In this document: piece by piece, positions 34,784 through 36,335 of the stretch | How the letters are laid out: every line of letters begins with the position of its first letter | How positions within the stretch are numbered: position 1 is the first letter of the stretch | Origin: Candidatus Poribacteria bacterium | GTDB taxonomy: Bacteria; Poribacteria; WGA-4E; WGA-3G | Length of the DNA: 64,000 nucleotides | Assembly (NCBI GenBank): GCA_965242965.1 | Contig: OZ251518.1 | Coordinates: 1,120,001 to 1,184,000 of the forward strand | Direction: 5' to 3' | The notes under the pieces: model-generated | Database searches by the model: none | Told to the model about the DNA's origin: nothing | What the model saw: the letters and a program-made list of their open reading frames with translations, nothing else | Made by a program: the position numbers and the translations under genes

Positions 34784-35005
34784 TCATTTCCGGACTGCGT
34801 CTAATACGCGTTGAAAGTCTTCCACGGAATCTGCCAGGACCGCGGCACGCAGCAATTCGTCAAGTCCTTGTGCGTCATCAACGGTGTCCAACGTTGACTG
34901 AAAATCGCGCGTGGCATCCGGATGCAATCGGAGCTCCAACACCCTAAGGATGGATTCACGGCGAGCTGCGGCACCAAAGTATTGGATGATAGGTGCTTCG
35001 TGCAT
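34784..35005 (-). CDS. Stand-alone Rpn C-terminal domain, cassette 2 (73 aa, putative RpnS-like antitoxin)
   Basis: GGAGG-CTAACC-ATG; near-identical to the distal part of the Rpn tail. Confidence 0.8.
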   Translation of the reverse strand: MHEAPIIQYFGAAARRESILRVLELRLHPDATRDFQSTLDTVDDAQGLDELLRAAVLADSVEDFQRVLDAVRK

Positions 35006-35063
35006 GGTTAGCCTCCAAAGGTAAAGACGAGGCAGCGCGGTTGAGAACCGCGCCCTCGGTGAA

Positions 35064-35309
35064 TCAGCTGTCGTTCGCCGCCAAAGCGCGCCGGAAGTCT
35101 TCGACAGAATCCGCTAGAACCGCTGCATGATGCAACTGCTTGAGGCGTTGCAAGTCGTCAATAGCCTCCAGCGTTGGTTGAAAATCGCGTGCTATGTCCG
35201 GATGCAACCGAAGTTCCAATACTTCCAGGATATGTTCACGCGAATTCTGTCGCCGTGCTTCCGCAGTGGCTTGCTCTGTCCAATATTGGACAATCGGAAT
35301 TTCGTGCAT
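35064..35309 (-). CDS. Stand-alone Rpn C-terminal domain, cassette 1 (81 aa, putative RpnS-like antitoxin)
   Basis: GGAGG-CTAACC-ATG; first 20 aa identical to the Rpn internal product. Confidence 0.8.
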   Translation of the reverse strand: MHEIPIVQYWTEQATAEARRQNSREHILEVLELRLHPDIARDFQPTLEAIDDLQRLKQLHHAAVLADSVEDFRRALAANDS

Positions 35310-35345
35310 GGTTAGCCTCCAGTGGGACACGCGAGGCGGCGCGCT

Positions 35346-35591
35346 TCATTTCCGGACTGCGTCTAATACGCGTTGAAAGTCTTCCACGGAATCTGCGAGG
35401 GCCGCGGCACGCAGCAATTCGTCAAGTCCTTGTGCGTCATCAACGGTATCCAACGTTGGCTGAAAATCGCGCGTTGCATCCGTATGCAACCGGCACTCTA
35501 ACACCCTAAGGATGTCTTCACGCGATTTTTCCCGCCGTGCTTCCGCAGTGGCTTGCTCTGTCCAGTATTGGACGATAGGGATTTCGTGCAT
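35346..35591 (-). CDS. Nested in-frame small protein (RpnS-like, 81 aa) from an internal start
   Basis: AAGGAGG-CTGACC-ATG at codon 216 of rpn. Confidence 0.7.
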   Translation of the reverse strand: MHEIPIVQYWTEQATAEARREKSREDILRVLECRLHTDATRDFQPTLDTVDDAQGLDELLRAAALADSVEDFQRVLDAVRK

Positions 35592-36236
35592 GGTCAGCCT
35601 CCTTACGATATCCAAAATGTGTTCCTTCTCAAAAATTACATTGCCCAACACAGCCATCACCCCGAGGGTATCCAGCTTATTCGGCATGTCGATGTTATCC
35701 GCGGTTTGAATGCACCGCTGCAACCATTCGTCCGCATCCACGCCTACAGGCGGCTTCATCAGCGGTGTGAACGGTAGCAAACCGGTAGGCTGCGCGTCAA
35801 GGACCGCCTGTCCATCCATCTCCGCGAGACGGATGACTTGGTATTCCACCAAAATCTCGTTCCCAGGGATCTGCTGTTGAAACTTCCCCGGGTCATTTCG
35901 GCCGGCATCCGGCCGCAGATAAATCACGTTGGCGTAGACATCCATCCGGTATGTTCTCACCAACCAGATGATATAACTCGCCATCCGGAGTGCCATCGAC
36001 GGGTCAAAACTATCGGTAGTTTGAAACTCAAAATGCACCAAGACATATTTGCCGCGGAGTTTCACCTTGATCAGGACATCCGCCTGACGCATTTCAACGG
36101 TAGGTTGCTCCGGCGTGATGAGCTCCACGTCGGTAAATTCTACCCCGGTCATACGCCGTAGGTTGAAGCAGAACGCCACGAAATCTCTGGGGTTCTGCTG
36201 CACTAATCTTTTCGATGCGCTGTCAAAAGATGCCAT
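35346..36236 (-). CDS. Rpn/YhgA-like PD-(D/E)XK nuclease
   Basis: FD...K N-terminus, ADVL...HFEFQT, MALRMASY, NVIYL, LLPFTPLM. Confidence 0.85.
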   Translation of the reverse strand: MASFDSASKRLVQQNPRDFVAFCFNLRRMTGVEFTDVELITPEQPTVEMRQADVLIKVKLRGKYVLVHFEFQTTDSFDPSMALRMASYIIWLVRTYRMDVYANVIYLRPDAGRNDPGKFQQQIPGNEILVEYQVIRLAEMDGQAVLDAQPTGLLPFTPLMKPPVGVDADEWLQRCIQTADNIDMPNKLDTLGVMAVLGNVIFEKEHILDIVRRLTMHEIPIVQYWTEQATAEARREKSREDILRVLECRLHTDATRDFQPTLDTVDDAQGLDELLRAAALADSVEDFQRVLDAVRK

Positions 36237-36305
36237 TCAATCTCCTTTTTCATTATTTGATTTGATAAACGCCTGACTCTGAAATGAGAGCGGCTTCTGA
36301 TAGAT

Positions 36306-36335
36306 ATTATACCTCATTCAAAACAAATTTGTCAA
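36306..36335 (-). promoter_or_regulatory. sigma70-type promoter of rpn
   Basis: TTGACA-18 nt-TATAAT on the minus strand. Confidence 0.7.

Follow-up and report, generated by a model that had tools for sequence, protein, structure and literature searches.

Tandem free-standing copies of the C-terminal domain behind an Rpn-like nuclease gene of Candidatus Poribacteria: a probable toxin-antitoxin module

The long forms of Rpn proteins are toxic endonucleases, which are bound and blocked by RpnS, whose synthesis begins at an internal start (Zhong et al. 2023, PMC10400941; cited throughout from the accessible part of the article). According to that source, transcription of the short product has its own start inside the E. 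coli rpn genes, and RpnS proteins carry four-residue repeats that vary in number and start 8-20 residues past the internal Met. One repeat more or less abolishes the neutralisation of RpnC; repeat number sets specificity. Free-standing rpnS copies, which are made as protein, are reported directly downstream of rpnE (the copy known as ypaA) and of rpnC. They are described as derived by duplication of the upstream tail, and deletion, or fusion to the N-terminal domain, can remove such a copy. What drives the rapid change of repeat number, and which role the second copies play, was left open by the accessible text and by a commentary on it. Here we analyse a related locus in a stretch of 64,000 nucleotides (hereafter the window) from the genome of a Candidatus Poribacteria bacterium. 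A long gene for a divergent Rpn-like protein, with an internal start for its C-terminal domain (the resident tail), is followed by two further genes (hereafter cassettes 1 and 2), both of which encode that domain alone and start exactly at the position of the internal start.

The locus resembles E. coli rpnE-ypaA and rpnC-rpnCSs in having a long gene of the PD-(D/E)XK type in which an internal Shine-Dalgarno (SD) sequence and ATG head a small helical C-terminal domain. As in rpnE-ypaA, a free gene lies on the same strand a few bases downstream, begins at the equivalent Met behind the same ribosome-binding site (RBS), would have originated by duplication of the tail, and differs from the resident tail by four-residue repeats. 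In E. coli K-12, ypaA starts 13 nt past the rpnE stop, is 75% identical to the resident tail with one extra repeat, and uses the same AAAGGAGAGATTAATG as the rpnE internal start. NCBI flags this copy as a pseudogene, and newer RefSeq annotation names some copies 'Rpn/YhgA-type helix-turn-helix domain-containing protein'. Sequence like ypaA is present at 1-4 places per genome (median 2) in 5421/5426 complete E. coli genomes; given these numbers, E. coli may also hold multi-copy ypaA arrays. Where the accessible E. coli account describes a single copy, the Poribacteria array has two, and other arrays of the genome have up to three. Half of the 18 Poribacteria paralogs have arrays, some of which form ladders of repeat number, and the proteins, from an uncultured sponge symbiont, are too divergent for the Rpn or DUF4351 models of Pfam and NCBIfam. 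The loss by fusion stated in that account for E. coli free copies fits the mosaic structure of the Poribacteria tail.

The original prediction for this locus had taken its architecture to be undescribed for Rpn. Its interpretation was largely right and its novelty overstated: since the layout with a single downstream copy is already contained in the accessible text of PMC10400941, what is new is limited to multi-copy arrays, their frequency and the repeat-number ladders. These are not described in the main text of that article as far as it was accessible; its supplements (Fig. S1B, S3, Dataset S1) may show arrays. A literature search on Rpn arrays after Zhong et al. 2023 returned only that paper and its commentary, and a search on toxin-antitoxin or defence systems of Poribacteria returned nothing specific.

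A tandem bank of 3' partial copies behind an expressed gene, with probable recombination between bank and gene and a conserved junction, also recalls two other kinds of system. Orphan C-terminal toxin/immunity modules lie downstream of cdiA and rhs genes, and pilS and vls are silent cassettes. In contrast to cdiA and rhs, the variable module here would be the antitoxin/oligomerisation domain and not the toxic domain, and there is no separate immunity gene; orphan modules of the cdiA/rhs type were ruled out on the former ground. In contrast to the silent pilS and vls cassettes, those described here have their own start signals and traces of selection on the protein. Silent donors lack expression signals, whereas a start codon is present in 14/14 free copies of this genome and an SD of at least 4 nt in 13 of them. 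Segmental transfer into the expressed copy, typical of silent cassettes, may have a counterpart in the mosaic breakpoint of the resident tail and in changes of slot among the three genomes compared.

The internal start and free tail genes in the genome and the phylum

In the window, an SD AAGGAGG, a 6-nt spacer CTGACC and an in-frame ATG at 35591 were read from the sequence of the long gene. Cassettes 1 and 2 both have GGAGGCTAACCATG, with GGAGGCTAACC upstream of each cassette open reading frame (ORF), and their RBS is almost that of the internal start. At the protein level, cassette 1 is 70% and cassette 2 84% identical to the resident tail. The coordinates, ORFs, internal AAGGAGG-N6-ATG and cassette RBSs given in the original prediction were reproduced base for base, and the separate promoter it had assigned to the long gene matches the sigma-70 consensus at 12/12 positions (36306..36335).

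The genome (5.7 Mb) encodes 18 full-length paralogs with 32-63% identity to the window protein. At the alignment column of the window's internal Met, 14 of them have ATG and three GTG, and the remaining one has ATG one codon later. An SD of at least 5 nt precedes the aligned internal start in 16/18 paralogs. The corresponding background is 864/18810 (4.6%) for internal in-frame ATGs of long ORFs and 838/2448 (34%) for their first ATGs. As the paralogs are kin, they do not amount to 18 independent trials, and a binomial P value would overstate the case. However, the residue pair that spells the SD changes with the subfamily (RR, EE, EG, SE), which fits selection on an RNA signal. Judged from these alignments, the internal start signal is conserved beyond chance. 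The tail has a layout of an MxES..Q head, a variable run of four-residue repeats and a conserved helical end of ~55 residues, the variable region being located in the long first helix (218-249 in the structural model). The repeats (GIEQ, EGRE, GIQQ, EARQ) start ~11-20 residues past the Met, and their number varies among paralogs and cassettes. Two full-length paralogs stand in direct tandem (L015:1447-2466 and L012:1447-2421; G000:C1:3435502-3437694), with tails that differ by 15 residues in the repeat region.

An iterated hidden Markov model (HMM) of the tail gave 33 matches in the genome, corresponding to 32 tail domains, of which 18 are fused to a nuclease and 14 are free. Thirteen of the free copies lie directly downstream of 9/18 paralogs, in arrays of 1, 1, 2, 1, 1, 1, 1, 3 and 2; the fourteenth is an orphan gene (G000:C1:21590-21847, 85 aa) with SD and ATG and no nuclease domain nearby. 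Each of the 14 has an uninterrupted reading frame with a start codon at the aligned position. Their SDs measure at least 5 nt in 11 and 4 nt in two; the one copy that has none begins in an ATGA stop-start overlap. In this array (L011:2128-2732, G000:C1:869801-870405) the cassette ATG overlaps the stop of the long gene, which suggests translational coupling rather than independent initiation.

The ratio of nonsynonymous to synonymous substitution rates (dN/dS) was below 1 in 18/18 within-array pairs (0.11-0.75), including all five cassette-cassette pairs (0.11-0.42, dS up to 2.8). As evidence for selection on the cassettes these values are weakened in two ways, in that those between tail and cassette partly reflect constraint on the tail itself and in that estimates on ~80 codons are noisy. 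For the window array, dN/dS was 0.15 between cassette 1 and tail, 0.64 between cassette 2 and tail, and 0.11 between the two cassettes; with dS of 1.4-2.8 the window copies must be old. Taken together, the reading frames and substitution patterns indicate that the cassettes are kept as intact protein-coding genes, probably under purifying selection. The closest sequences to any cassette are tails or cassettes from the same or the orthologous array, which argues for an origin by duplication of the neighbouring gene's tail. At least 45 nt of the coding sequence ahead of the internal start belong to the duplicated unit in several arrays.

In two congeneric genomes the gene has the same neighbours, the MscS-like gene and phoU, with two intact cassettes in one genome and a single one in the other. 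These neighbours abut in other genera of the family (in G004 they are separated by 75 bp); the module is thus a genus-level insertion with a varying number of cassettes. Several expectations of the original prediction can be judged from these comparisons. That the free copies begin exactly at the internal ATG had been advanced in support of this start, and this position is borne out by the sequence, the tail alignment and the paralog column. Neutral decay of the cassettes in relatives had been named as an outcome that would speak against a function; they are intact in both congeneric species and in 14/14 cases within the genome. The count of arrays and paralogs it had proposed came to 18 paralogs, nine with arrays, in this genome and, among the Poribacteria loci fetched with the window protein, to 11/68 that carry 1-3 free tails directly downstream. 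Most cassettes of these 11 loci have ATG or GTG plus an SD; the cassette of L051 has neither ATG nor GTG as a start.

Related loci from named records come almost all from Candidatus Poribacteria (sponge symbionts). The tail profile matches 50 of the 61 Poribacteria genomes sampled (1 to 75 matches per genome), and among the 150 tail-profile matches listed, 52 lie in open frames under 200 aa. One 4.3-Mb Poribacteria genome (G047) has at least 75 tail-profile matches (191 first-look candidates, 85 scored), compared with 32 in the window's genome. In one protein database 154 small unnamed proteins match the tail profile; in another, 3335 representatives do so at E <= 0.001, and among the best 150 of these 3335, 133 are under 250 aa and 48 have their first residue at profile position 1. 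There are also natural proteins of 2-4 tail modules without a nuclease domain (P0241, P0242, P0286, P0243, P0121), which are either fused cassette arrays or the result of read-through of adjacent cassettes. One of them, a distant relative with four modules, has a weak DUF4351 match (17.9 bits, cut-off 25).

Features of the locus in the window are collected in Table 1. A weak promoter-like site sits just upstream of the internal start; the promoter scan found five promoter-like sites in the region against 1.5 +/- 1.1 in shuffled sequences. No terminator-like site was found on the minus strand between the long gene and the cassettes in a scan of the sequence. The 58-nt spacer between the cassettes folds at -23.5 kcal/mol (z = -2.55), with 3/200 shuffles equally stable. 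CCUC...GGAGG complements are present in inter-cassette spacers. Hairpins that sequester the SD were considered for these spacers and rejected, as mean SD pairing was 0.71 against 0.67 in shuffled sequences, and 13/22 cassettes lay above the shuffle mean. The locus has an MscS-like channel gene on one side and phoU-pstB on the other. A G+C-rich dispersed repeat flanks the rpn-phoU block at 34380-34730 and 37040-37360. It gives ~3900 BLAST high-scoring segment pairs (HSPs) genome-wide, its core near 34520-34560 being matched ~2000 times, reaches an enormous summed depth in public contigs, and looks like an element of the repetitive extragenic palindrome (REP) or miniature inverted-repeat transposable element (MITE) type. 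A link between this repeat (34380-34730) and the rpn paralogs was rejected: each paralog has 0-6 HSPs within 1.5 kb, where 2.7 are expected.

Table 1. Positions of the sequence features of the Rpn-like locus within the window
Feature	Position	Strand	Remarks
Long gene (RpnL-like)	35346..36236	-	296 aa; from ORF list and sequence
N-terminal PD-(D/E)XK nuclease domain of the long protein	~residues 1-140		invariant D53, H68, E70, Q72
C-terminal tail domain of the long protein	residues 216-296		preceded by a helical linker
Promoter of the long gene, TTGACA-18-TATAAT	36306..36335	-	sigma-70 consensus match only, 12/12
SD of the long gene, AAGGAG	36242..36247	-	5 nt ahead of ATG at 36236
Internal SD, AAGGAGG	35598..35604	-	spelled by codons of residues R-R-L
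Gene within gene (RpnS-like)	35346..35591	-	predicted 81-aa product MHEIPIVQYW... with N-terminal MxE..Q motif; internal ATG 35591
Weak internal promoter-like site, TTGAGA-16-TATCGT	35605..35632	-	consensus match only, 9/12
Cassette 1	35064..35320	-	including SD GGAGG (35320-35316); ATG 35309; 81 aa; stop 35066-35064
Cassette 2	34784..35016	-	including SD GGAGG (35016-35012); ATG 35005; 73 aa
G+C-rich hairpin without U tract	35029..35057	-	in the 58-nt spacer between cassettes 1 and 2

Mosaic tails and repeat ladders

The similarity between the resident tail and the two cassettes is distributed unevenly. The first ~75 nt of cassette 1 are 89% identical to the resident tail, the remainder 60-68%. 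The last ~93 nt of cassette 2 are 98% identical to it, and ~16 nt past the stop are also common to both; the variable region of cassette 2 is shorter by 8 residues, that is by two four-residue units. At informative sites, the resident tail agrees with cassette 1 in 13/18 of the first sites and with cassette 2 in 66/72 of the remaining ones. The breakpoint is placed ~77 nt downstream of the ATG (maximum chi-square 35.3, permutation p = 0.0002). By this site pattern the resident tail is a chimera of cassette-1-like and cassette-2-like DNA. Moreover, tail types occupy different slots in the three congeneric species. For the body of cassette 1 the closest match (91%) is the resident tail in one sister species, and the 3' third of the window's resident tail is closest to cassette 2 (98%), followed by cassette 1 of the other sister species (84%). 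In this comparison of three genomes, the tail-cassette exchange may have run in either direction and by recombination or gene conversion.

The cassettes deviate from the resident tail chiefly in how many four-residue repeats they carry, or else are mosaics. The variable region differs in length from that of the neighbouring long gene's tail in 7/13 array cassettes, including cassette 2, and five of these differences are multiples of four residues. In one array (L079), the tail and three cassettes are 96-99% identical outside the repeats and separated by identical 71-nt spacers, and the cassettes are shorter than the tail by 7, 4 and 2 units of 12 nt. Three further arrays (L067, L064, L040) have similar whole-unit length differences.

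Public contigs on the locus are unitigs of 100-900 nt, and among the pieces listed none spans the array. A contig joint at 35177-35551, present in three public runs, skips 373 nt and links the body of cassette 1 to the head of the resident tail. It was rejected as a recombinant of the array, since its shorter side measures 30 nt and the skip does not agree in register with the 282-nt unit; a related strain or a paralog may be its source.

A probable Rpn-type module and alternative readings

Within the long protein, D53, H68, E70 and Q72 are invariant across 66 relatives, and D53, E70 and Q72 lie on adjacent strands of the AlphaFold2 model (predicted local distance difference test, pLDDT, 87.3). 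In hhalign alignments the invariant residues fall on the SD..IEHQS..FRMMRY core of E. coli RpnA/B/C/E, with D53, E70 and Q72 opposite D63, E82 and Q84 of RpnA, which we take to be the catalytic residues of that protein. One Fibrella protein is a match of the family profile with 97% probability, and this protein in turn matches TIGR01784 ('Rpn family') with E 7.4e-11 and 42.4 bits, under the cut-off of 52.1. Tail helices of the model span residues 218-249, 252-263, 268-280 and 284-295. Model residues 4-138 superpose on NucS (2vld_B; 102 aligned, root-mean-square deviation 3.1) with a Z score of 8.0, which is near the noise level stated for models without a clear match; further structural matches below NucS are VC1899, Can2, SdaI, Card1 and McrC, likewise PD-(D/E)XK nucleases. 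The closest protein language-model clusters of the long protein (score 0.97) bear Rpn family, DUF4351 or DUF2887 names, and one of the three best clusters for the cassette, of 71-73-aa proteins, has DUF4351 in 11% of its members; such cluster matches come without alignment or E value and serve as leads only. Proteins of the Rpn family/DUF2887+DUF4351 type from cyanobacteria and other phyla have the length and two-part layout of the window protein, but differ in that the latter has no HMM match at the cut-offs of TIGR01784, PF11103 and PF14261. As for DUF4351 (PF14261), neither the three tails of the window nor, at E <= 1, any sequence of the genome matches it. E. coli ypaA fails this model as well, so that a PF14261 match discriminates poorly among free-standing RpnSs genes, which bear this annotation in some species. 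The PADLOC search gave no match for the locus, nor for E. coli RpnA, and its library is thus without Rpn coverage. In sum, the long protein is probably a divergent Rpn-like PD-(D/E)XK nuclease, Rpn-like by every sequence feature tested and below the thresholds of the curated models. The original prediction of an Rpn-type nuclease with an internal start for its tail domain was right in this sense, by way of remote evidence; the assignment to Rpn of the enterobacterial type did not hold, as the Pfam and NCBIfam cut-offs are not reached.

We consider it fairly probable that the locus is a toxin-antitoxin module of the Rpn type, likely anti-phage, in which tandemly duplicated and translated antitoxin-tail genes diversify by slippage and exchange. 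The long product would be a PD-(D/E)XK DNA endonuclease and would act as the toxin. Its C-terminal helical domain would also be made alone, from the internal SD and ATG; this short form would, as the E. coli analogue RpnS suggests, bind the same domain of the long protein and block it. Two tandem duplications of the 3' end of the gene, from the internal RBS to just past the stop, would have given two RpnSs-type genes equivalent to ypaA, which would share the transcript of the strong rpn promoter and each be translated from an SD and ATG of its own. The array would evolve by slippage of the 12-nt (four-residue) repeats and by recombination or gene conversion between tail and cassettes, as a result of which tail types would move between expressed and cassette slots. 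The products would most likely be extra small antitoxins of differing register, and the array may in addition be a substrate for assembling new specificities of tail and antitoxin. Toxicity, neutralisation, translation, a defence function and the RpnL partner of each cassette we infer, and both a multi-antitoxin array and a bank of spare tails are compatible with the data. For the complex of tail and cassette 1, structure prediction with own alignments gave an ipSAE of 0.46, compared with 0.04 for the best control; at least 96% of contacts recur between runs, and the pLDDT of the partner is at least 77. The ipSAE mark is reached by 58/80 solved complexes and 2/110 mismatched pairs, and at ipSAE <= 0.60 by seven of the 80 solved complexes together with both passing mismatches. 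Because the two chains are paralogs with 70% identity, the prediction tests only dimerisation of the domain, and it lends weak support to an interaction.

Several observations weigh against such a module. The curated models fail to recognise the protein: with the Pfam model PF04754 the window protein reaches E 0.062 and 13.3 bits (cut-off 21), and across the genome the model gives 14 bits at best, with E 0.06-0.08 and covering positions 52-101 only. The NCBIfam search of the window protein returned no match at E <= 0.1, and TIGR01784 gave a genome-wide best of E 0.012 and 16.7 bits (cut-off 52.1), whereas E. coli RpnA as a positive control scored 305.9 and 160.9 bits. None of the 18 paralogs matches an Rpn-related Pfam family at E <= 0.01, and PF14261 (DUF4351) and PF11103 (DUF2887) match nothing in the genome. 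Membership of the Rpn or YhgA-like family of recombination-promoting nucleases (PF04754, TIGR01784, COG5464) therefore rests on remote evidence, and here, too, the direct hhalign alignment to E. coli RpnA/B/C/E has E 0.0014 and a probability of 17% over 75 columns, Foldseek found nothing in the PDB at E <= 0.001, and the family profile against the sequences of solved structures reached E 0.38 at best. The position between an MscS-like gene and phoU-pstB is not evidently a defence island, and among the public runs recorded as RNA none contains the locus. Finally, if the repeat rule of E. coli applies, none of the 7/13 array cassettes with deviating length, cassette 2 among them, would neutralise the long protein beside it, and an extra cognate antitoxin cannot then be the whole story.

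The failure of every curated Rpn model, together with fold matches that are to generic PD-(D/E)XK nucleases at Z <= 8, could mean that the long gene is not Rpn-like in function but codes for something like a transposase, or for a restriction-type nuclease whose tail is regulatory, the internal SD and ATG being a by-product of conserved residues. We regard this as very improbable. The SD is spelled by RR, EE, EG and SE across subfamilies, as under selection on the RNA signal; free copies start exactly at the internal Met, 48 of the tail's best 150 relatives in the database are encoded by small genes of their own that begin there, the four-residue repeats are located where the accessible text of Zhong et al. 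places them, 8-20 residues past the start, and the D..ExQ..RMxxY core aligns with RpnA. Tandem duplication at a repeat-rich 3' end might also have left the cassettes as by-products without function, intact only through youth. Some arrays are indeed very young (96-99% identity in L079), 12-nt repeats promote slippage and unequal exchange, and K-12 ypaA bears its pseudogene mark. Youth does not fit the window copies, which combine dS of 1.4-2.8 and dN/dS of 0.11-0.15 with the absence of stops and frameshifts, and whose orthologs are intact in two further species. Since, moreover, 14/14 copies in the genome are intact with a start codon, independent arrays of different subfamilies all keep the unit from SD to stop, and ypaA is made as protein in E. 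coli according to the accessible part of PMC10400941, we think an absence of function quite improbable.

Among functional alternatives, the cassettes may chiefly be a bank of spare tails, donors for homologous recombination or gene conversion by which the long gene's tail and its in-frame antitoxin together take on a new repeat number or sequence type, the cassettes' own products being secondary. The chimeric resident tail with its significant breakpoint, the tail types in different slots in three congeneric species, the ladders of repeats between near-identical flanks that could be used as recombination anchors, and the loss of free copies by fusion to the N-terminal domain, stated in the accessible text of PMC10400941, would all be accounted for. 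The mosaic is, however, equally explained by duplication followed by partial conversion the other way, and silent donors need no start signals, yet 14/14 copies have a start, 13 of them with an SD of at least 4 nt or a coupled overlap. Cassette-cassette dN/dS of 0.11-0.42 at dS up to 2.8 argues for selection on the protein, and natural proteins of 2-4 fused tail modules exist; on balance we hold a mainly donor role to be rather unlikely. Recombination and expression would both matter if the arrays were a device for diversification, in which recombining cassettes of differing repeat number or sequence type change the specificity of the toxin's oligomerisation domain and of the in-frame antitoxin in a single event, while translated cassettes provide antitoxins of all other registers and so guard every recombinant. 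Such self-immunised switching, perhaps helped by a recombination-promoting activity of the nuclease itself, is not described for toxin-antitoxin modules in the literature searched, and we consider it doubtful. The cassette products might instead act in trans, on other Rpn paralogs, on incoming or phage-borne toxins or RpnS mimics, or on the RpnS pool as anti-antitoxin or buffer. The length mismatch of 7/13 array cassettes with the neighbouring tail would be expected then, given that repeat number sets specificity in E. coli according to the accessible account, and the cassette a2258_C1 has the same length (78 aa) as the resident tail a3184_T. But this sole coincidence of length falls within a recently duplicated pair of loci, and by sequence the cassettes cluster with the subfamily of their neighbour and not with distant paralogs; action in trans thus appears improbable to us.

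Significance for Poribacteria and the Rpn family

The family is greatly expanded in the Poribacteria lineage, with dozens of paralogs in a genome. A large Rpn-like family that is invisible to the models of Pfam, NCBIfam and PADLOC is undercounted in censuses of defence systems of sponge symbionts. With half of its 18 paralogs in one genome followed by 1-3 extra tail genes, with its ladders of repeat number and with its traces of exchange between tail and cassettes, the Poribacteria family offers a natural experiment on the change of repeat number and on the role of the free copies. If repeat number sets specificity as it does in E. coli, the arrays would encode several antitoxin specificities beside one toxin.

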